Shown: piece by piece, positions 1,460 through 30,591 of the stretch | Layout of the letters: the number at the start of each line of letters is the position of its first letter | Numbering within the stretch: position 1 is the first letter of the stretch | Origin: Candidatus Eiseniibacteriota bacterium | GTDB lineage: Bacteria > Eisenbacteria > RBG-16-71-46 | Assembly: GCA_963717505.1 (NCBI GenBank) | Contig: OY970342.1 | Location: 1,248,001 to 1,312,000, forward strand | Reading direction: 5' to 3' | DNA: 64,000 nucleotides | Notes under the pieces: model-generated | What the model saw: the letters and a program-made list of their open reading frames with translations, nothing else | Databases searched by the model: none | What the model was told of the DNA's origin: nothing | Program-made: the position numbers and the translations under genes

Positions 1460-3477
1460 CTACTTCACGACGGCGAAGCGAACGACCGTGCGCCGCTCGT
1501 CGCCGGTCATGCGCAGGAAGTAGACGCCCGGCCCGAGCGGGGCACCGCCGTCGCGCACTGCCCGCCACGAGAGGGCGTGCCGGCCCGGCTCGAAGCTGCG
1601 ATCCACGGGGGTCGCCACGCGCCGGCCGGCCAGATCGAGGACGTCGAGACGCACCCGTCCGGCACGCGCGAGGTCGAAGCGCAGGGAGGCCGCACCGGAG
1701 AGCGGATTGGGCGCCGGCGCCAGCAATCGGGTGACCGACGGGAGGGGCTGATCGGGCGTCGAGACCGACGGGCTGCGTACGATCCCACGCAGCGCGATCA
1801 CCAGATCGGCGTGGGTTTCGGCGCCGGGCAGCGACTCGTCGGCGCTCGCGATCCGCATCTCGCCCGTGTAGACCACGTCGGGCACGGCGCCGCCTTCGTC
1901 GAAGCGCACGGTGTAGGTCCGACCGACGCCGGCAAGCAGCGCGTCACCGCCGTCGACCACCGTGAACAGCGGGCTGCCGGTGATCGAAGGCTCCTGAACT
2001 TGAAGCCGAGCCTGGTTCGCGTCCCAGCCGAAGTTGTGAATACGAAGGTCACGGTCGGCGAGGGTGCCGGACTCGCCGTCGAACGCGAGGGAGTCGGCCC
2101 CATTGGCGATGACGCTCGAGTCGAGCGAAGCCACCGAGTGATCGAGAATCGTCGCGAACAGGTCGATGTCGTAGAACGGCGCATCGGCAGCGTCCGAGGT
2201 GACCGTCAGAATGCCGGCACGCGGACCCAACTCCCCGGGGTCGTGGCGATGGTGACGATCTCGCTCTGGCCCGGCGGAATCTCGCCGCCCGCGGGGGCGA
2301 GAAAACCCTCGGACGTCGACAGCGTGTAGGTCAGCCCGTCGGCCGGCGCCACGGCGGGGTTCGTGATCGTCAGATCGGCGCTGCCATCCCCGATCAGCGT
2401 GCCGAAATCGAGCTCGACGGCGGCATTCAGGATCGCCGGCAACCGGAGGTCGACGCGGATCGGCAGATGGTCCGCCGACATCTTTAAGGCATTTGCGTAA
2501 GCCGCGCCCTCGGGCAAGGTTGGAGCGTCCGTGATGTTCAGGTTGAAGTGTTGCCCGTCGTTGCCGACCGGAATGTAGGTATTGACCAGGAGTTCGAGCC
2601 CGTTGCCGTCGTTCAGCGCATAGGTGGGCAGGAACATGTCGAAACGATCGTCGAGCCCGCCGGTGGCGGCGCCACTCGCGCACGGGGCGGCGAGGCACGG
2701 ACTCTGGGTGTGGATCGCCGCGAGGCTGGCTGTGTTCCAAGTGCTCGCTGGAGCGTTCAGCGGGTCGTAGAGCCGGCCGTCGTCGTCCGCCTGGCTCTCC
2801 TTGAACTTGAGAAACGCCGGCTCGTTGCCCGTGTAAATGTTGAAGTCGCCCATGAGGATCGCATGGGTGCCGGGCGGCATGGCGTTCATGCTGTCGCGAA
2901 TGCCGATCGCCTCGGCGTGTCGCTGAGCCACATCGCCCGAGGTGTTGCTGGCCTTCAAGTGCTGCGAATACACGCGGAACTCGGCGGCGTCACTCGAGTA
3001 CCCGATCGGCCTCAGGCGATAGCAGTCGACCAAACGAAGGTTGGTCGCTGGATTCGGGTACCAGCTCCAGTGGCCCAGCAACTCGACGCTCGCCGGTTTG
3101 TAGAACAGCGCATTGTTGGTGTCGTTGCCGTCGTTGAAGGGTGCGGCGACCCACTGCCCCGGCTCCATCGTGTTGAGCACGTTGGTGAGAAAGCCGTCGA
3201 CACCGACCTGGCTCTGCATTTCCTGGACGACGACCACCTCGGCGCCGAGCGGCTCGAAGATGGTGCGAAAGAGGGGATTGCGGGTCGGCCCACTGGGGCC
3301 GGGGTAATTCAGGATGTTGTAGTTGACGATCCGGAGCGCCAGGGACTCCGAGGTCGCCATCAGCGCGAAAGCGGCGCTGATCGCCAGGACGCGCGCGATG
3401 GCCGCAGAACTGCGGCGGAATCGCGGGGAAATCGGCAAGAACGAACCGTCACCGGGACGGGCCATATCGGGGGCCAT
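1460..3477 (-). CDS. Secreted EEP-family protein with C-terminal FlgD-Ig/T9SS-like sorting domain; one frameshift near 2235
   Basis: ORF 2206..3477 has YNI, VQE, HLKA, GDFN, DDRFD and ADHLP motifs; ORF 1460..2740 continues with Ig domains and a PNP...DLAGRRV...GVYF tail; the join is at a ccccgggg run needing one extra G. Confidence 0.88.
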
Positions 3478-3665
3478 GCGGTCTCCTGGGAGAAAAGAGC
3501 AGCGATGCCGGCGGCCCGATCGGACCGAGGGGTGGTCCTCGAGGGCGAGACGGTCTCAGCAATGGCTAGCCAGCAGGGATTCTAGCGGGTCGGGGGGTGG
3601 GTCCGGAAGGGTGGGATTGTGGGGGCCGGCGGCCGCTGCGGGTGGCGGCCGCCCAGGGTGCTTCG

Positions 3666-3908
3666 CTATTCGATTAGCACGAAGGCGCAGATCGCCTCGG
3701 CCCCGCCCTGAAACGACGGGTCGTGGGCCGCGAGAATTCGAGCAAACGCACACACCTTGTGCGCCCAGCGGGAGGACCAATCCGGCTGCGGGTCGATCAC
3801 AACCGGGCGCTCGGGCGCGGCGTGGCTCTCGGCCCGCACCGTGCCCGGGGTCAGGAGGATCAAGGCGAGTCCCACGACGCCGACCGCACGGCGAAAGGAT
3901 GTGGACAT
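3666..3908 (-). CDS. Small secreted peptide (80 aa) with C-terminal CX20C hydrophobic core (peptide D)
   Basis: GAGG RBS 7 nt before ATG; Sec-type signal ending VRA; core VCAFARILAAHDPSFQGGAEAICAFVLIE. Confidence 0.75.
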   Translation of the reverse strand: MSTSFRRAVGVVGLALILLTPGTVRAESHAAPERPVVIDPQPDWSSRWAHKVCAFARILAAHDPSFQGGAEAICAFVLIE

Positions 3909-3933
3909 GGACGTGCCTCAGGGGGGCGAGGGA

Positions 3934-4059
3934 TCAGATGTCGTTGGCGATGATGAACGCGCACAGCATGGCGCCACCCCAGCGATCGATCAGGCTGCCG
4001 ATCGACAGGCCATAGGCGCAGACCACCACGCCACACCAGGAAGCCAGGACTTCGTTCAT
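3934..4059 (-). CDS. Short leaderless peptide (41 aa) with CX18C core (peptide C)
   Basis: GAGG 5 nt before ATG 4059; MNEVLASWCGVVVCAYGLSIGSLIDRWGGAMLCAFIIANDI; resembles the peptide D core. Confidence 0.72.
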   Translation of the reverse strand: MNEVLASWCGVVVCAYGLSIGSLIDRWGGAMLCAFIIANDI

Positions 4060-4094
4060 TGGGTCCTCGAGCGCGGGGGCGGGTCCAAGTCGAA

Positions 4095-4373
4095 TCAGCG
4101 TCCGGGGGAGAAATAGTCTTCGAGGTCGACGTGAATCGCGTAGAGACACGCTCCCAACGCGAGCCCGCCGACGCCGGGAACCTCCCAGGCGATCTTCCAA
4201 CTAACTCGGCACACGGCCCAGGACAAGCGGGTTTCGTTGCGCCGGGCTGCCTCGGCATCGGTGGTCGCCGAAGAGCTGTCGGGAGTTTCGGGCGCGGAAT
4301 CGGCGGACCCCACGCGTGCGAACGGCAGCGCGAGCAGGCCCGCGAGGATCAGGGGGGCGAGACGGCGAACCAT
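4095..4373 (-). CDS. Small secreted peptide (92 aa) with C-terminal CX20C core (peptide B)
   Basis: GGAG RBS before ATG 4373; signal peptide, acidic/Ser spacer, core VCRVSWKIAWEVPGVGGLALGACLYAIHVDLED. Confidence 0.75.
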   Translation of the reverse strand: MVRRLAPLILAGLLALPFARVGSADSAPETPDSSSATTDAEAARRNETRLSWAVCRVSWKIAWEVPGVGGLALGACLYAIHVDLEDYFSPGR

Positions 4374-4412
4374 GTGGGGCTCCATCCCGGGGGACGACGG
4401 CGGGGGCGTGAC

Positions 4413-4541
4413 TCAGAGATTGTCGAGGGCTTCCAGTACGTGAAGCACCAGGCACGCGAGACCACTCGCGGCGCCGACGATCGGGATCCAGCGAAGCGGG
4501 CTTTCGAGGCTGCAGAGGGCGGCGATGGCCCCGTTGAACAT
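4413..4541 (-). CDS. Short leaderless peptide (42 aa) with CX19C core (peptide A); below the ORF-track cutoff
   Basis: GGAGG RBS 7 nt before ATG 4541; MFNGAIAALCSLESPLRWIPIVGAASGLACLVLHVLEALDNL; resembles the peptide B core. Confidence 0.72.
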   Translation of the reverse strand: MFNGAIAALCSLESPLRWIPIVGAASGLACLVLHVLEALDNL

Positions 4542-4668
4542 GACGATACCTCCGGGGGATGGGTCACCGGGGGCGGTGTCGACCGGCGGGCGGGATGTCC
4601 GTGGGTCGACGTCACCGGCGGGGCAAGTCGGGGTGACGGCGCCGCTACCGGTTGGAGTCGCCGCTACA

Positions 4669-4683
4669 GCACGGCGCGTGCCG
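4669..4683 (-). promoter_or_regulatory. Sigma-54 (-24/-12) promoter candidate for the four-peptide cluster
   Basis: Minus strand CGGCACGCGCCGTGC = GG-N10-GC, ~130 nt upstream of peptide A. Confidence 0.55.
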
Positions 4684-4740
4684 GGCGAGCCAACTCGATG
4701 GGGGCAATTCCCGCCGCGATCGAGCCCGACCCAGGAAGGC

Positions 4741-5505
4741 TCAGCGCGTGTCGCCGTTCCCGCGCACGCGATCCCACAGGATTTTCAGCGGATCGTAGAA
4801 CCGATCCACCACCCGCTCCTTGAGCGGGATGATCGCGTTGTCGGTGATGTGAATGCTCTCGGGGCAGACCTCGGTGCAGCACTTGGTGATGTTGCACAGG
4901 CCGAGGCCACCTTCGTCGCGCACGAACTTCAGCCGATCGGCGCCGTCGATGGGGTGCATCTCGAGCCCGGCGATGCGCACGAAGAAGCGAGGTCCGGCGA
5001 ACTGGTGCTTGAGTTCGTGGCTGCGCAGCACGTGACACACGTTCTGGCACAGGAAGCACTCGATGCACTTGCGGAATTCCTGGGCGCGGTCGACGTCTTT
5101 CTGCTCCCAGCGCCACTCGGCGCCGGCGCGCGGCGTGAACGGCTGAATGCGCTGGTTGACCTCGTAGTTCCACGACACGTCGGTCACCAGGTCCTTGATG
5201 ATCGGGAAGGTCTTCATCGGCCGCACCGCCACCGGCTGGTCGTGCGGCATGTGGTCGAGCCTGGACTTGCACATCAGCGCCGGCTTGCCGTTGACCTCGG
5301 CGCTGCACGAGCCGCACTTGGCCGCCTTGCAGTTCCAGCGCACCGCGAGATCCGGGGCCTTGTGCCCCTGAATCCAGTGAATCGCGTCGAGCACGACCAT
5401 TCCGGGCTCGACCGGCACGTCGTAGCTCTCCATGTGGCCGCCGGAGGCGTCGCCGCGAAACACCTGCATCTGGATCTTCCGGTTCGCCGTCGCAGTGTCG
5501 CTCAT
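4741..5505 (-). CDS. sdhB: Succinate dehydrogenase/fumarate reductase iron-sulfur subunit
   Basis: Starts MSDTATANRK with ATGA overlap on the sdhA stop; CKAAKCGSC, CIECFLCQNVC and CNITKCCTEVCP cluster motifs. Confidence 0.95.
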   Translation of the reverse strand: MSDTATANRKIQMQVFRGDASGGHMESYDVPVEPGMVVLDAIHWIQGHKAPDLAVRWNCKAAKCGSCSAEVNGKPALMCKSRLDHMPHDQPVAVRPMKTFPIIKDLVTDVSWNYEVNQRIQPFTPRAGAEWRWEQKDVDRAQEFRKCIECFLCQNVCHVLRSHELKHQFAGPRFFVRIAGLEMHPIDGADRLKFVRDEGGLGLCNITKCCTEVCPESIHITDNAIIPLKERVVDRFYDPLKILWDRVRGNGDTR

Positions 5506-7322
5506 CCGACCTTCTCCTTGGCGGGCTCGAACAGAACTTTCAGCTCCTCGGGCATCACGGGCAGCGGCGTCGGCCCAACATTCATCCCGGCACCACTCAG
5601 CCGCGCGCACATGTTCACCGTCGAGAACTCGGCGCTCGGTTTGGGGAAGTCGAGGCGTGAATGCGCACCGCGGCTCTCCTTGCGAAGCAACGCGCTGCGA
5701 GCGATGACTTCGGACACCGTGATCAGACGCAGCAGGTCGCGGCTCATGTGCCAGCCCGGGTGGAAGACCCGCGAGCCCTCGACACGCACCGTCTGCGCCC
5801 GGCGCTTGATCTCGGCCAGCTCGCCGATCACCGCCTCGAGGTCGGATTGTATCCGGAAGATCCCGACTCGGGTCTGCATGGTCTTCTGCAGGTCGCGGTG
5901 CACCGCGTACGGGCTCTCGCCCTGCGCGCGCTCGAACGGCGCCAGCATCAGGCGGATCTCGTCGTGGACTTCGGGCTCGCTGACGCTCGGTGCGGAGGCG
6001 AGTCCCTTGGCGTACTGCGCGGCCGCGAGCCCGGCCCGGCGGCCGAACACGATCAGGTCCGACAGCGAGTTCCCTCCCAGACGATTGGCGCCGTGCAATC
6101 CGGCGGCGACTTCGCCGGCGGCGTAGAGACCGGGCACGGTCGCCGCCGCGGTGTCGGGCTCGACCCGAATGCCACCCATCATGTAGTGCATGGTCGGGCC
6201 GACTTCCATCGGCTGCTTGGTGATGTCGACGTCGGCCAGCTCCATGAACTGGTGGTACATCGACGGCAGCTTCTTCTGCACGCGGTCGGACGGCATGTAG
6301 CTGATGTCGAGGTAGGCACCACCGTGCGGCGTGCCACGACCTTCCTTGACCTCGGTGTAGATCGCACGCGCGACGTTGTCGCGGGTCGAAAGCTCGGGCG
6401 GGCGGCGTGCTTCCGTCTGGCGTCCGGCAACCGCGGCCTCGACCCAGGCGCGCGCTTCGGCCTCGTCTTCGGCGTACTCGTGCTTGCGCTCCTCGGGCAG
6501 GTACTTCCACATGAAGCGCTCGCCCTTCTGGTTGCGCAGGATGCCGCCCTCGCCGCGCACACCCTCGGTGACCAGGATGCCCATGACGCCCGGCGGCCAC
6601 ACCATGCCGGTCGGGTGGAACTGGACGAACTCCATGTCGATCAGCTCGGCGCCCGACTCGAACGCCAGCGACTGCCCGTCGCCGGTGTATTCCCACGAGT
6701 TGGAGGTGATCTGGAATGCCTTGCCGACGCCGCCGGTGGCGAGCACAATCGCTCTTGCTCGGAACAGCACGAACGTGCCGGTGGCGCGCCAGTAGCCGAC
6801 CGCACCCGCGATTCGCCCGCCGTCGAGGAACAGCCGCGTGATCGCGCACTCCATGTAGGTCTGAATGCCCTGATGTACGGCACGGTCCTGCAACGTGCGG
6901 ATCATCTCGAGCCCGGTGCGATCGCCGACGTGCGCCAGACGCTTCCAGGTGTGACCGCCGAACGCGCGCTGGAGAATCTTGCCGTCCTCGGTGCGATCGA
7001 ACAGCGCGCCCCAGTGCTCGAGCTCGCGAACGCGATCAGGTGCTTCCATCGCGTGGAGCTGCGCCATGCGCCAGTGATTGAGGAACGACCCGCCCTTCAT
7101 GGTGTCGCGGAAGTGAGTCTGCCAATCATCCTGGGGATCGACGTGGGCCAGTGCCGCAGCGACCCCGCCCTCGGCCATCACCGTGTGCGCCTTGCCGAGC
7201 AGCGATTTGGTCACGAGTCCGACCGAAGCACCTTGGGCCGCGGCCTCGATCGCGGCGCGCAGCCCGGCGCCGCCGGCGCCGATCACCAGAACGTCGTGTT
7301 CGTGGACTTCGTACTTCTCCAT
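5502..7322 (-). CDS. sdhA: Succinate dehydrogenase/fumarate reductase flavoprotein subunit
   Basis: GAGGAG FAD motif, KAHTVMAEGG covalent-FAD His, QFHPTG, HYMMGG, HGANRLGGNSL, ESRGAHSR. Confidence 0.97.
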   Translation of the reverse strand: MEKYEVHEHDVLVIGAGGAGLRAAIEAAAQGASVGLVTKSLLGKAHTVMAEGGVAAALAHVDPQDDWQTHFRDTMKGGSFLNHWRMAQLHAMEAPDRVRELEHWGALFDRTEDGKILQRAFGGHTWKRLAHVGDRTGLEMIRTLQDRAVHQGIQTYMECAITRLFLDGGRIAGAVGYWRATGTFVLFRARAIVLATGGVGKAFQITSNSWEYTGDGQSLAFESGAELIDMEFVQFHPTGMVWPPGVMGILVTEGVRGEGGILRNQKGERFMWKYLPEERKHEYAEDEAEARAWVEAAVAGRQTEARRPPELSTRDNVARAIYTEVKEGRGTPHGGAYLDISYMPSDRVQKKLPSMYHQFMELADVDITKQPMEVGPTMHYMMGGIRVEPDTAAATVPGLYAAGEVAAGLHGANRLGGNSLSDLIVFGRRAGLAAAQYAKGLASAPSVSEPEVHDEIRLMLAPFERAQGESPYAVHRDLQKTMQTRVGIFRIQSDLEAVIGELAEIKRRAQTVRVEGSRVFHPGWHMSRDLLRLITVSEVIARSALLRKESRGAHSRLDFPKPSAEFSTVNMCARLSGAGMNVGPTPLPVMPEELKVLFEPAKEKVG

Positions 7323-7346: not shown

Positions 7347-8249
7347 CTAGAGCCCGAGTGGCGTTGAAGTGGTGAACAGATCGAACGGGAAGATCACCCA
7401 GTCCTGAATGACTCCCATCGAGCACAGGCGAACGTAGAGATCGGCGAAGCAGACGCCGCCGAGACTCCACCATGCCCAGCCCATGTGGTGCTCGTTGAGG
7501 GCACTGACCACGCTCCAGGTCTTGTGGCGTGGCCCGCCGGCCGCGACGCACGAGAAGCAGTCGAGCTTCCCGCCGATCAGGTGGCGCAGCGAGTGGCACG
7601 ACAGCGTGTACATGGTCAGGAGCCCAGTGCTCGCCAGGATCGCCAGCGTGCCGCCGCCGATGCCGAAGCGCGTGCCGGTCGGGGTCACGAAGATTGCGGC
7701 TTTGATCACGTCCCACCACAGAATGACGAGGATGATGAGCGCCGCATAGAGGAAGTAGCGGTGCACGTTCTGCAGGATGAACGGGAACTTGGTCTCGCCG
7801 CAGTAGTCCTGCGGCCGCTCGCCAACCGCGCAGGCGACCGGGTCGGCGAAGAACGACCGGTAGTAGGCCTTGCGGTAGTAGTAGCAGGTGGTGCGGAAGC
7901 CGAGCGGGAAGATCAGGATCAGGAGCGCCGGCGAGAACCACTGCGGCAGCCACGACGGGCGGATGTAGGGCGAGAAGAACGGCGACAAATAGTGTCGGCC
8001 GTTTTCGAGGTAATGGTGGTGGCCCTCGCCGAGGATCGCGGCGTAGTTGGCGTAGCCGATCAGGAGTACCAGCCCGGTGGCCTGGAGAACCGGGATCAGC
8101 CACCAGAGGTCGGTGCGGTCGGTCTGGCCGAAGGATTCCTGGGCACCGCGGCCAGGGTGGGCGCCCTTGGGCGTTGCGCCGGTTGTGCTTGGCCCACGCA
8201 TTGAGCCGGCGGCAGCACCTCCCGACCAGCGACGATCGCGATCAGCCAT
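7347..8249 (-). CDS. SDH membrane anchor of the mycobacterial Sdh1 (Rv0249c-like) type
   Basis: Multi-TM protein first in the sdh operon; TCYYYRKAYYR, QNVHRYF, SCHSLRH and NEHHM motifs. Confidence 0.85.
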   Translation of the reverse strand: MADRDRRWSGGAAAGSMRGPSTTGATPKGAHPGRGAQESFGQTDRTDLWWLIPVLQATGLVLLIGYANYAAILGEGHHHYLENGRHYLSPFFSPYIRPSWLPQWFSPALLILIFPLGFRTTCYYYRKAYYRSFFADPVACAVGERPQDYCGETKFPFILQNVHRYFLYAALIILVILWWDVIKAAIFVTPTGTRFGIGGGTLAILASTGLLTMYTLSCHSLRHLIGGKLDCFSCVAAGGPRHKTWSVVSALNEHHMGWAWWSLGGVCFADLYVRLCSMGVIQDWVIFPFDLFTTSTPLGL

Positions 8250-8378: not shown

Positions 8379-9470
8379 TTAGCGCACGAACACTCGCGCC
8401 AGTCCGTAAGCCACCAGCGCCAGGAACACCCACTGCGCGGCACCCGCGGCGAGCGGCCTCACCCCCGCCGCCCGCAGCTCGCCGAAGCGAATCTGCAGTC
8501 CGACTCCCGCCATGCCGACGCACAAGAGCCAAAGATCCGCGCGCTGGATGAACGCGACCCACTCCTTGGGAATCACTCCCAGCGAGTTGATCGCCGTGAA
8601 GATCACGAACGCGGCCAGGAACCACGGCGCCGGGCTCACGTGTGCCGTGCCGGCCGCGACGTGGCGGCGGCGCAGCATCCAGCCGAGGTAGAGGACCACC
8701 GGGGCCAACAACGCGATCCGCGCGAGTTTGACCACGGTCGCGACGCGCGCGGCTTCGTCGCTGACGCCGAAGCCGGCCGCCACCACCTGCGCCATCTCGT
8801 GCAGCGTGGCGCCGTCCCACACGCCGAAGAAGAAGTCGGTCATGCCGAGGGCCGCGGCGATCAGCGGGTAGACCAGAATCCCGATGGTGCCGAGCAGCGT
8901 GATCACGCCGAGCGAGATTGCGGCGTCGCGTTTCTCGCCCTGGACGACTGAATCCGCGGCGACCACGGCCGAGGCGCCGCAGATGGCGCCACCGACCCCG
9001 AGGAGCAGGCCCATTTTTTCGGGTATCCCAAATCGGCGTGACACCCACCAGCCGAAGAACAGCGCGGCGAAGGTCGAGAGCACGACCACGCCGAGTGCCG
9101 GGCCGCCGATCCGCACCAGCTCACCGAGGCTCAGGCGAAATCCGAGTCCGGCGACCGCCCAACGCAGCAAAGGTCGTTGCGCGAGCCTCAGTCCCGGCTC
9201 GAGCGCCGGCGGCAGGCGCACCGTCGAGCCCACGATCATTCCCAGCACGATCACGAGCAACAGCGCGCTCAGGTGCAGCGTGTCCTTGATCCACGGCTGA
9301 TCGGCGAGCAGGAAAGCGGCGGTCGCAAGCACGACGCACGCGGCCAGCCCGGGAATGATTCGGCGCCACTCCGCGACGGGCGGGGTGGCGCCGGAAGACT
9401 TGGTTGCGCCGGTCGACAATGATGAGCCGGCGGAGGGCGCTTCGCCGGGCGACGTCGATGCGGCGCTCAC
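8379..9470 (-). CDS. YeiH/PSE family putative sulfate exporter
   Basis: About 10 TM helices; ICGASA, ATVVKLARI and MAGVGL signatures. Confidence 0.9.
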   Translation of the reverse strand: MSAASTSPGEAPSAGSSLSTGATKSSGATPPVAEWRRIIPGLAACVVLATAAFLLADQPWIKDTLHLSALLLVIVLGMIVGSTVRLPPALEPGLRLAQRPLLRWAVAGLGFRLSLGELVRIGGPALGVVVLSTFAALFFGWWVSRRFGIPEKMGLLLGVGGAICGASAVVAADSVVQGEKRDAAISLGVITLLGTIGILVYPLIAAALGMTDFFFGVWDGATLHEMAQVVAAGFGVSDEAARVATVVKLARIALLAPVVLYLGWMLRRRHVAAGTAHVSPAPWFLAAFVIFTAINSLGVIPKEWVAFIQRADLWLLCVGMAGVGLQIRFGELRAAGVRPLAAGAAQWVFLALVAYGLARVFVR

Positions 9471-10045
9471 GCCGTGTACGCCAGCTCCTTGTATTTGCGC
9501 AGGTAGGTGCCGTCGGTCATCGGCTCGAAGATGTGGCAGTGGGTCATCTCGCCGCCGTAGACGTGGAGCGTGATCGACGGGCTCGCGATCGGATTGGCGA
9601 TCGTGTGGTACTCGAACGGTGGGATCAGGGCGCCGGCCTCACCGGGACCCGCCCGCACCACGGTCTCCCGCTCGAACTTGACGCAGTCCTTCTCGGGATC
9701 GCCGCCGCGTACCGAGTACGACGTGACCTCGATCGTGCCGCGGTACACGCACTCGACGCACCAGATGCCGGCGTGGTCGTGGAGCGGCGTCTTCTGGCCG
9801 ACGCCCCACACCATGACCAGCACGGTGTAGCGGCCCTGCGGATCCTTGTGCAAGAGCCGGCGCGCGTAGCGATCGGGTGCCGGCTCGAGGAAAGGCGCCG
9901 GGACGAACGAGCCGCCGCTCGCCACGACGTCTTCGAGGACTTTCTTCACGTTGCGACATCGGATGGCATCGTCGGCCACGGCGACCGCCAAATCGAGGCG
10001 GCGGATCAGCTCGTGGACCATCGAGGAATCGGTCTGTGTCGTCAT
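9467..10045 (-). CDS. Cysteine dioxygenase-family thiol dioxygenase (cupin)
   Basis: YARRLL, TPLHDHAGIWC, EYHTIAN and TLHVY motifs; ATGA-coupled to yeiH. Confidence 0.9.
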   Translation of the reverse strand: MTTQTDSSMVHELIRRLDLAVAVADDAIRCRNVKKVLEDVVASGGSFVPAPFLEPAPDRYARRLLHKDPQGRYTVLVMVWGVGQKTPLHDHAGIWCVECVYRGTIEVTSYSVRGGDPEKDCVKFERETVVRAGPGEAGALIPPFEYHTIANPIASPSITLHVYGGEMTHCHIFEPMTDGTYLRKYKELAYTA

Positions 10046-18656: not shown

Positions 18657-19130
18657 TCAGCGCCCGCCCGACGTCACCTCTGCCAGCGTGGCCCGGTAGA
18701 CCGAGTCACGCCCTCCGCCTGCAGCCACGGCGCGCCCGGCGAGCGCACGGGCCTCATCCAGGCTCCGCCCTTGTCTGAGCAAAGCGATCGCCAGGTTGTT
18801 CATCGCGTCGTAATCCGTCGTGGAATCGCTGAGCGCTCGCCGGTAGCACTTCTCAGCGCTGCTCCAACGCCCTGCCGCAGCCTCGATGTTGCCAAGGTTG
18901 ACGCGCGCCCGGGATTGGTGGGGATCGAGCTTGAGAGCCTTGCGGTACTCCTTCGCTGCCAGATCGAGCTTGCCGCTCGACTCGTATACGACGCCGAGGT
19001 CGTTGTGCTCGCTAGCCGTCAGCGGGTCGTGCAGCACCACCAGATGGGCGCAACCCGATAGTGCGGCAACCCATACCGACGCCAGCGCGAGCGCGACCAC
19101 GACCGGGCGGGCGAGGCCCCGCGCATTCAT
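18657..19130 (-). CDS. TPR-repeat lipoprotein
   Basis: LSGC lipobox; HNDLGVVYE, ARVNLGNI and AMNNLA TPR motifs; ATGA-coupled to the C39 gene. Confidence 0.88.
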   Translation of the reverse strand: MNARGLARPVVVALALASVWVAALSGCAHLVVLHDPLTASEHNDLGVVYESSGKLDLAAKEYRKALKLDPHQSRARVNLGNIEAAAGRWSSAEKCYRRALSDSTTDYDAMNNLAIALLRQGRSLDEARALAGRAVAAGGGRDSVYRATLAEVTSGGR

Positions 19131-19648
19131 GGTGACACTCTTCGGATGATCAGCGCCTGCGAACCCGCCGTCCGCCACCGTTTCGCGAGCTTGTCACCGT
19201 CCACAACGCTCGGTCGGGCCCCGCCATCATTCAGGCTGAAGGCCTCGCGTGCGGGATCCCAACCGGTTACCACCCCAAAGTGTGCGACCGTAAGCGGGGC
19301 TCGCCCGCTCTGGTAGAGGACGATAGGTGGCACTCCCAACACGAGCAGAGCGACCAACGAATCGGGGGTGAGGGTCGCGACCGTGGCGTCGTAGCCGGCT
19401 CGGCGCGCGGCGGCTGCGAGGTCTGTGATGAGCGACCCGCGCAGGATGGGATCGTATGCACTGTCTGCTTCATGAAGTGCCGCGGCGTCGGCGCCGTAGT
19501 AGCGCAACACCATTTCGAGCGCGGCCTGGCCGCAACGCTCGCGCTCCTGCACCACGATCGGTACGTCCAGGTCCACCACGGCCGCGGCCAGCCCGGAACC
19601 GGTGCCCGGCGAGGCTCCTAGCAGCAAAGCCACCAGCAGGCTCAGCAT
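19127..19648 (-). CDS. C39-like cysteine peptidase (PA2778-like), catalytic residues intact
   Basis: Signal peptide; QERERCGQAAL (Q, C), AHFGVV (H), LNDG (D). Confidence 0.85.
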   Translation of the reverse strand: MLSLLVALLLGASPGTGSGLAAAVVDLDVPIVVQERERCGQAALEMVLRYYGADAAALHEADSAYDPILRGSLITDLAAAARRAGYDATVATLTPDSLVALLVLGVPPIVLYQSGRAPLTVAHFGVVTGWDPAREAFSLNDGGARPSVVDGDKLAKRWRTAGSQALIIRRVSP

Positions 19649-19685
19649 CGTTTCACGGGCAATGCCTTGTCTCCGTGTTTGAGAA

Positions 19686-19835
19686 TCACAGCACCTTCCG
19701 GCCCTGAATGACACGAATCAGCACGACGATGATGGCGATGACGATCAGAATGTGGATGAAGCCACCCATCGTGTAGGACGTCACCAGACCGAGCAACCAA
19801 AGAATGATGAGCACGACCGCAATCGTCCACAGCAT
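19686..19835 (-). CDS. lmo0937/DUF5670-like small membrane protein (49 aa)
   Basis: GGGAGG RBS; MLWTIAVVLIILWLLGLVTSYTMGGFIHILIVIAIIVVLIRVIQGRKVL. Confidence 0.85.
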   Translation of the reverse strand: MLWTIAVVLIILWLLGLVTSYTMGGFIHILIVIAIIVVLIRVIQGRKVL

Positions 19836-29717: not shown

Positions 29718-29769
29718 ACCTCCCGGGTAATCGATGGAGCGCGCGACGGATGCCTCCAAGAGTCACATC

Positions 29770-30591
29770 ATGAACAGTCTGCTCTTGGCGATTCTAATCC
29801 CACTACACTTCACGGCACCCGCGGACACGGTGGGTGTGGGCGCGGGGGCGCTGGTGTACTTGCCGGCGCCTCCGGTCCACGCCTACGTCTTCCACCAGCT
29901 CGATTCGAACGGGACGTTGACGGCGACCCCGGGGTACGCGGACTCGGCTGGAAGCACGATTCTCATCCCCCACGCACCGGGAACGCGGGAAACGGTATGG
30001 CTCACGCCCGGTGCGGATGGCAACCCCGTGACGATCTACATCATGTCGCTCGATGCGGGTGGCAACCTGAGCGCCCCGAGCAACGGATGCGTCATTGGAG
30101 AGCTTTCGATTCCTGCCCAGTTGGCGATGCGCCGCAGGGCCGGGACCGCACTCGATGTGCCTCTCGTGAGGCAGGCGCAAGAACGCAGCGGCCAGGCAGC
30201 GCTCGCGATGGTCTTGAGCTACCACGGGGCCGCCCCCGCCGCGCTTCAGGAGGTGGAAGGCGCATACGATCCGGTTCTTCGTGGCTCGCGTATCACTGAC
30301 CTCGCTGGCGCCGCGCGCCGGGCGGGTTACGAAGCTGCGATCGCAACGCTCACGCCGGACTCGCTGATCTACCTCCTGAGTCATGGCGTGCCGCCGATTG
30401 TGCTCTATGCGTACGGATCCGGACCCGCAACGGGCGGACAGTTTGGCGTAGTCATTGGCTGGGATGCCACCGAGGCGTCTTTCACGCACGACGGTACTTC
30501 GCGTCGGCGCGTGGCGCGCCGCGATGAACTCGTGAAGTGGTGGGAGCCCGCCGGCTCGCAGGCGCTGATCGTCCGGCAGAGGGCCCCCTAG
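29770..30591 (+). CDS. Secreted protein with N-terminal beta-rich domain and catalytically inactivated C39-like domain
   Basis: QAQERSGQAAL (Cys to Ser) and GQFGVV (His to Gln); rest closely parallels 19127..19648. Confidence 0.8.
   Translation: MNSLLLAILIPLHFTAPADTVGVGAGALVYLPAPPVHAYVFHQLDSNGTLTATPGYADSAGSTILIPHAPGTRETVWLTPGADGNPVTIYIMSLDAGGNLSAPSNGCVIGELSIPAQLAMRRRAGTALDVPLVRQAQERSGQAALAMVLSYHGAAPAALQEVEGAYDPVLRGSRITDLAGAARRAGYEAAIATLTPDSLIYLLSHGVPPIVLYAYGSGPATGGQFGVVIGWDATEASFTHDGTSRRRVARRDELVKWWEPAGSQALIVRQRAP

Follow-up and report, generated by a model that had tools for sequence, protein, structure and literature searches.

The two secreted peptides that make up gallocin A are 42 and 60 residues long, have few charges and two cysteines each, and were modeled as alpha-helical hairpins with an intramolecular disulfide essential for activity; immunity involves a third small peptide (GIP) of the same hairpin shape (PMC10100652). 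Gallocin A appears to be the closest published design that we found to a cassette of four small genes, here called A to D, on the minus strand of a 64,000-nucleotide (nt) stretch of DNA from a Candidatus Eiseniibacteriota bacterium (GenBank assembly GCA_963717505.1, contig OY970342.1, positions 1,248,001 to 1,312,000 of the forward strand). The entire stretch is referred to below as the window, and positions are those of the window. The likeness comprises several small genes in one operon, products of ∼40 to 60 residues with few positive charges and two cysteines, antiparallel alpha-helical hairpins (predicted in our case) in which the cysteines face each other, and a further small hairpin peptide as partner or immunity factor, a role that may have its counterpart here. 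The two systems differ in that gallocin A has a double-glycine leader, whereas the products of B and D carry putative Sec-type signals and those of A and C none. Moreover, no ABC transporter, regulator, or thioredoxin-like protein adjoins the genes in the window, and the host is not a Firmicute, as for gallocin A, but a member of an uncultured diderm lineage.

The class IIb bacteriocin family PF10439 did not match A to D at E values of ≤10, and a scan of the whole genome gave a single 12-bit match elsewhere, below the cutoff. Two class IIb features, a double-glycine leader and a nearby C39-peptidase ABC transporter, were missing from the locus; a third, a hairpin with facing cysteines, one per helix, was present in the AlphaFold2 models of C and D. 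Chaplins of Streptomyces are secreted hydrophobic peptides of ∼50 residues with two conserved cysteines that form beta-rich amyloids. They resemble the present proteins in having paralogous small, secreted, hydrophobic domains, a conserved cysteine pair, and a Sec signal; here, however, no Pfam match above chance level was found, the predicted fold is helical rather than beta-rich, and chaplins are not known to have leaderless paralogues. Respiratory complexes can have small accessory subunits, such as SdhF of mycobacterial Sdh2, which are likewise tiny hydrophobic proteins encoded beside genes for a membrane-bound enzyme. In contrast to such subunits, the family described here does not travel with the enzyme, and two of its four members in the window have putative export signals and long polar spacers.

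The four genes and their family

The cassette follows an operon for a type-F succinate dehydrogenase (sdhC-like, sdhA, and sdhB) on the same strand, with the start of A 200 nt past the sdhB stop and intergenic gaps of 25 to 39 nt between A, B, C, and D (Table 1). An earlier note, drawn from the letters of this stretch, had described four co-oriented open reading frames (ORFs), each with its own ribosome binding site. We recovered all four on the minus strand, with a purine-rich, Shine-Dalgarno-like site 4 to 7 nt 5′ of every ATG (identified by eye: GGAGG for A, GGAG for B, GAGGA for C, and GAGG for D), of which that of A, 7 nt 5′ of its ATG, was the strongest. Gene B has an alternative start at an upstream ATG at position 4385, which would extend its product to 96 amino acids (aa). 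The G+C fractions at codon positions 1, 2, and 3 were 0.67/0.47/0.79 in A, 0.68/0.58/0.77 in B, 0.52/0.48/0.83 in C, and 0.68/0.53/0.83 in D, compared with 0.69/0.46/0.86 in sdhA as a reference and a G+C content of 66% in the local DNA; plus-strand ORFs overlapping the cassette lacked such a coding-type pattern.

The C-terminal parts of all four products have a common layout: a cysteine, 18 to 20 residues with a central Pro/Gly/Asp turn, a second cysteine, 5 or 6 hydrophobic residues, and acidic residues. With spacings of 19, 20, 18, and 20 residues in A to D, the Cys-X18-20-Cys motif that had been reported together with a hydrophobic stretch and an acidic tail was borne out. C has an additional Cys9, which is not conserved. 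The N termini of B and D are basic, then hydrophobic, and end in small residues (GSA/D in B and VRA/E in D), followed by a polar spacer that is acidic and rich in Ser, Thr, and Pro in B. Read by eye, as in the earlier note, these segments suggest signal peptides, whereas A and C have no leader, the hairpin beginning at the N terminus. Judged by their sequences, genes A to D are real: coding signatures were found for all four and conservation for B, C, and D. Gene A would escape ordinary gene callers, and none of the four products has a family assignment.

Table 1. Features of the window discussed in the text
Feature	Position	Strand	Description
Gene A	4413-4541	-	42 aa, Cys10-x19-Cys30, no signal peptide, tail LVLHVLEALDNL
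Gene B	4095-4373	-	92 aa; signal-like N terminus, spacer, Cys55-x20-Cys76, tail LYAIHVDLEDYFSPGR
Gene C	3934-4059	-	41 aa, Cys14-x18-Cys33, no signal peptide, tail AFIIANDI
Gene D	3666-3908	-	80 aa; signal-like N terminus (…GTVRA/ES), Pro-rich spacer, Cys53-x20-Cys74, tail AFVLIE
Candidate stem-loop	3628-3653	-	GC-only 9-bp stem, 8-nt loop, 13 nt after D stop, no U tract
SdhB	4741-5499	-	Fer2_3 and Fer4_8 domains
SdhA	5502-7322	-	Directly upstream of sdhB
sdhC-like	7347-8249	-	300-aa membrane protein; matches M. smegmatis Sdh1 membrane anchor 7d6v_C, E = 1.3e-52
C39-like 1	19127-19714	-	∼15 kb from cassette; beside TPR and ice-binding-like proteins
C39-like 2	29734-30591	+	∼26 kb from cassette; after DUF6627 protein, before OmpA/glycine-zipper protein

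Searches of Pfam, NCBIfam, PHROGs, PADLOC, and PDB sequences gave no family match for A to D, in keeping with the earlier statement that the family was not recognized. A match of C to PF08040 in the Pfam scan at E values of ≤10 was at chance level (E = 0.31, 11.2 bits versus a cutoff of 27) and was discarded. Profile A2, built from ten cores, and profile A3 had 0 matches among PDB chains at E values of ≤10. In the ESM Atlas, B and mature D reached best scores of 0.79 and 0.82, below the lead level, with unnamed clusters as matches, and a limited literature search returned no description of this two-cysteine hairpin family. We conclude that peptides of the A-to-D type are a new, previously undescribed family of small proteins, built on a predicted hydrophobic hairpin of ∼40 residues, real but rare.

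Relatives of single members were found in a collection of 5.8 billion proteins. For B, there were three at 65 to 72% identity (4 proteins at E values of ≤10 of 31 candidates, including B), in which the core hardly varies but the leader and spacer do. D had P0007 (72% identity) and P0008 (67%) as relatives (3 proteins of 6 candidates, including D), and further D-type sequences are P0009, P0017, and a copy in genome G084. Relatives of C are P0011 (80% identity), P0015, and again a copy in G084. The relatives of B, C, and D keep the same starts and stops.

A profile search for conserved arrays, as proposed in the earlier note, was productive. Directly after sdhB and on the same strand, related cassettes are present in G084 and G008, two genomes of another genus in the same family. 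The G084 cassette, detected via a profile of the B relatives, holds B′, C′, D′, and a fifth, leaderless type, E′; the G008 cassette, detected from the DNA downstream of sdhB, holds B″ and E″. Across the three carrier genomes, B is always accompanied by a leaderless A or E, and C and D are adjacent in both genomes that have them, the third carrier being without both. Matches of profile A2 within these genomes were confined to the cassettes (4 in the genome of the window and 4 and 2 in the others).

At E values of ≤0.001, four genomes had a match to profile A2 among the 102 of the order, and likewise four among the 206 of the phylum. The match in G030 (23.7 bits, in a 152-aa frame) was marginal and was not counted, which leaves three clear carriers; a match to the profile of the B relatives in a 419-aa frame of G035 was also set aside, since it spanned only the signal and spacer. 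Against 1,835,955,588 representative proteins, profile A2 had 10 matches at the same threshold. Eight of them, all small, belong to types A to E and include A itself, the G008 B type, and one B relative already known. Two longer proteins, P0013 (513 aa, 7 stretches) and P0016 (1,014 aa, 13 stretches), matched a short part of the profile repeatedly and were set aside as presumed repeat or low-complexity matches. Searches for related loci with the B alignment in metagenome and species collections, and with P0008 in metagenomes, produced pattern matches, of which none could be confirmed. When B and D were used as single queries in 41 relatives, the matches were marginal only (E values of ∼1e-3 to 1e-2, in frames of 90 to 418 aa). 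Among 17 other loci with readable DNA downstream of sdhB, the family occurs in one (G008). An SdhB tree of 20 genomes left 10 of its 17 inner branches open, including the relation between the two carrier genera, so that both vertical descent with losses and transfer would fit. The family is very rare and lineage-restricted.

Contigs of two other metagenome runs overlap parts of the cassette with 80 to 99% likeness. In the core of B, 10 codons varied by synonymous changes only, versus 3 with conservative replacements (V82I, V65G, and I61V); the B spacer had 3 synonymous changes versus 4 replacements. For A, a gap-free alignment with one related contig spans the final 25 codons, in which 4 changes are synonymous and 2 nonsynonymous; C showed one synonymous change. 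In one low-depth contig a single T is missing at 4059/4060, i.e., the first base of the C start codon or the base before it. Since all of these contigs have a depth of ∼2 to 3, single differences may be errors. The earlier note had tied its reading to homologs with conserved Cys spacing or purifying selection; the relatives of B, C, and D are conserved in the hairpin core, and synonymous changes predominate in that of B.

Kinship between the types and predicted fold

Similarity within types was strong (Z scores of 6 to 40). Between types, BLASTP gave E values of 0.035 for A and B and 0.028 for C and D, and in 10,000 shuffles the A-B score was reached 28 times and the C-D score 229 times, compared with 867 to 2,619 times for the other four pairs, which were nonsignificant. 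To assess kinship at the level of the family, a profile of the other types was compared with each left-out type and with 3,000 composition-matched shuffles. The scores of C types were reached by 0 to 5 shuffles (C of the window by 2) and those of D types by 0 to 8 (D of the window by 0). Scores of 2 of 3 E types and 3 of 5 B types were reached by 0 or 1 shuffle, with weaker results for the G008 B type (168), the G084 B type (72), and the G084 E type (80). B, C, D, and E thus share one family template. A is an orphan, placed with the others by its architecture, its position, and a weak resemblance to the B of its own genome. The two homologous short/long pairs of the earlier note, A with B and C with D, proved to be the best-scoring pairing; their homology as pairs is weakly supported by the sequences, as A fails the profile comparison (see below) and C is equally close to type E and to D.

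AlphaFold2 models were obtained for two of the peptides. D (6-row alignment) had a mean predicted local distance difference test score (pLDDT) of 72.5, with 81 to 97 over residues 41 to 80, and helices at residues 44 to 62 and 64 to 79, Cys53 and Cys74 being 10 and 11 residues from the turn at residue 63. C (4-row alignment) had a mean pLDDT of 74.2 and helices at residues 3 to 24 and 26 to 39. Both are predicted to form a helix-turn-helix with one cysteine per helix, the two about opposite each other, so that the hydrophobic helical hairpin postulated earlier for all four peptides stands as a prediction for C and D. A hairpin is favored over one kinked helix because the best structural matches were all short two-helix hairpins. 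Best Z scores in VIA-align were 5.1 and 5.6 (range, 4.3 to 5.6), which denotes a common arrangement according to the tool, and yielded no nameable relative; the matched entries are presumably the Vta1 C-terminal domain, the HtrII transmembrane pair, ATP synthase c subunits, and designed helix-loop-helix proteins. Foldseek returned 0 matches in the PDB at E values of ≤0.001. Prediction of a complex of mature D with C gave a score of 0.02 versus a mark of 0.32 and carries no weight for or against this pairing.

Possible roles of the cassette

We tentatively prefer to read the locus as a competition-type cassette, in which exported, membrane-active hairpins are combined with look-alike leaderless partners. 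B and D would be exported to the periplasm of an outer-membrane bacterium, where a VKOR-type oxidation system could close the Cys-Cys staple. The leaderless and more hydrophobic A and C would remain in or at the cytoplasmic membrane. In such a cassette, the exported hairpins would be the membrane-active peptides, and each leaderless paralogue might neutralize or complete the neighboring hairpin, as proposed for GIP with the gallocin A peptides. The organism plausibly has an outer membrane and forms disulfides in its periplasm, because its genome encodes homologues of Omp85 (8 matches above the cutoff) and VKOR (one match, 80.6 bits); no match to DsbB was found in the genome, which is 86.7% complete. 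The gene content of the cassette differs between close genomes. This variable content, together with the alternation of exported and leaderless forms, the co-occurrence of C with D and of B with A or E, the patchy distribution, and the presence of unrelated ORFs or nothing in the same slot elsewhere, is easier to reconcile with an accessory locus in rapid change than with a core function in respiration.

Several observations weigh against a role in competition. In a diderm cell, a Sec-type signal alone reaches only the periplasm, and no outer-membrane route, adjoining transporter, or regulator was found at the locus. No terminator was predicted between sdhB and A; as the cassette follows after 200 nt, it may be cotranscribed with sdhCAB, an unusual arrangement for a bacteriocin. 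Nor are the peptides cationic, being neutral to acidic. As to the staple, the Cys-Cys distance and the hairpin geometry were deduced from the helix limits and the kinds of structure matched; in the C model, Cys14 and Cys33 are 11 and 8 residues from the turn and hence only roughly opposite; and the G084 B type has Phe at the first cysteine position, so that the staple is not universal in the family. Finally, A found only itself in the 5.8-billion-protein collection (1 protein of 1 candidate), and the profile of the other types did not recognize it (score of 0.5, reached by 1,093 of 3,000 shuffles).

The position of the cassette invites another explanation, which we consider rather unlikely, namely that its products are small proteins of the envelope or membrane whose role is housekeeping or regulation, for instance as accessory or regulatory partners of a membrane complex, the adjacent type-F succinate dehydrogenase being the obvious candidate. 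Other respiratory enzymes carry small subunits of this sort, made of a single helix or a hairpin. In all three carriers, the cassette comes immediately behind sdhB in the same orientation, with no terminator predicted at the junction in the window, and the 300-aa membrane protein encoded upstream is a clear homologue of the Sdh1 anchor (7d6v_C), which is the reason for assigning the dehydrogenase to type F. The Sdh1 operon of Mycobacterium smegmatis is said to comprise five putative genes, compared with three subunits (SdhA, SdhB, and SdhC) in the solved complex; solved Sdh1 requires these three subunits alone (PMC8054011). The distribution also speaks against such partners: SdhB is present in 20 of the 41 relatives, whereas the family has three clear carriers in the phylum and occurs at one of the top 80 SdhB loci in the species collection, and a co-occurrence test did not link it to sdhC-like, sdhA, and sdhB. 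Moreover, the slot directly after sdhB is taken by an EEP-like gene in G006 and by unrelated small ORFs in other genera. Should the dehydrogenase nevertheless prove to be the partner, the peptides would be new accessory parts of a recently defined enzyme class.

Given that leaderless and signal-bearing paralogues alternate, a leaderless hairpin might also bind its signal-bearing neighbor in the cytoplasm, with the pair being exported together by hitchhiking, possibly via Tat, and the resulting bundle serving as an envelope signal or structural element. An arginine pair in the N region of B (VRRLAP) and D (FRRAVG), shared by most D-type (5 of 6) and B-type (3 of 5) sequences, would suit this route. 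It is not invariant, however, the residues after it fit the Tat consensus poorly, the hydrophobic regions look Sec-like, and for type E direct membrane insertion is more likely because of its very high hydrophobicity (grand average of hydropathicity [GRAVY], 1.26 to 1.38), so that we regard co-export as improbable. The two conserved cysteines per peptide and the arrangement of the genes as paired types would also allow a metal or cluster to be ligated between two peptides by the four cysteines of a short/long pair, with no staple at all. The surroundings are rich in iron-sulfur proteins, including SdhB and an Sdh1-type anchor that in M. smegmatis holds a membrane-embedded Rieske-type cluster (PMC8054011). 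Yet the G084 B type is one cysteine short, the two cysteines within a chain face each other in the predicted geometry, the peptides have neither His nor additional Cys as ligands and matched no metal-binding family, and Sec export of unfolded chains is ill-suited to cluster proteins; such ligation seems very doubtful. Still another possibility, to which we assign hardly any weight, is that some or all of the ORFs are unexpressed, above all A, which might have arisen by chance or be a copy of the B core in decay. At such a G+C content, long ORFs often occur by chance, and the isolation of A in the protein and profile searches would agree with this view. Against this stand, for A, the strongest ribosome binding site of the four, a coding-type codon pattern, the Cys-x19-Cys motif, and a likeness to B rarely matched by shuffling and, for the other genes, relatives with the same starts and stops and the synonymous excess in the B core.

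If the competition cassette is accepted, it would be the first Sec-dependent hairpin-peptide competition system in an outer-membrane bacterium and the first from Candidatus Eisenbacteria, with leaderless forms that arose by duplication of a toxin core and that provide either immunity by mimicry or the second half of a two-peptide pore. We consider this fuller scenario unlikely as a whole. Membrane-active pairs of this kind would imply that the disulfide-stapled hairpin bacteriocin design reaches beyond Gram-positives and that toxin and immunity or partner forms interconvert simply by acquiring or losing an export signal. In uncultured phyla, most small proteins lack annotation. With so few members and so narrow a distribution, the present family will be of limited general importance until a function is demonstrated.

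Genes and sites around the cassette

As the earlier note had remarked, no modifying enzyme or transporter adjoins the cassette, which is flanked by the sdhC-like, sdhA, and sdhB genes upstream and by a gene for a secreted EEP-like protein with an FlgD_Ig-like end downstream. Two matches to Peptidase_C39-like were found in the 4.16-Mb genome, both of them within the window (Table 1), as stand-alone domains of 195 and 285 aa. They were rejected as exporters of the cassette products on account of their stand-alone nature, their unrelated neighborhoods, and the lack of an ABC transporter domain in the scanned neighbors.

A candidate stem-loop downstream of D possibly marks the 3′ end of the transcript. 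The 89-nt stretch that contains it was statistically unremarkable in folding (z = -1.83), and a consensus terminator scan did not include it among its listed sites. An Rfam scan of positions 3300 to 4900 at E values of ≤1 detected no family, and a repeat scan detected nothing notable.

The best SdhB loci in the species collection belong mostly to Candidatus Eisenbacteria metagenome-assembled genomes (75 to 81% identity among the top rows), and close SdhB homologues also occur under Acidobacteriota, Planctomycetota, and other phyla. In loci L030 (G005), L032 (G021), and L033 (G026, a genome flagged as unpublished, whose publication needs the depositors' leave), the slot after sdhB is occupied by a different gene of 73 to 74 aa, whose product ends in a conserved …QE(Y/F)DF and has two Cys-x2-Cys motifs that look like a zinc ribbon by eye. 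A Pro-rich ORF of 57 aa takes this place in G036 and G030. A very hydrophobic ORF of 49 aa with a coding-type codon pattern lies shortly past the cassette of G008 (L039, 626-775, minus strand); the first 12 kb of the window contain no relative of it, and G084 has one with 47% identity ∼3 kb further on (L053, 5771-5911).

The EEP-like gene of the window (1460-3477, minus strand) is broken up into two ORFs, 2206-3477 and 1460-2740, which overlap and are read in different frames. The 687-aa homologue in G084 matches 3477-2230 and then 2308-1505, which suggests a frameshift near 2230-2308; this could reflect a pseudogene or an assembly indel. A better-preserved paralogue is located at 21-1505, with 58% identity to the G084 protein. 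On the other side, upstream of the dehydrogenase operon (8379-10045, minus strand), a YeiH-like membrane protein (Cons_hypoth698) and a homologue of cysteine dioxygenase type I are encoded.

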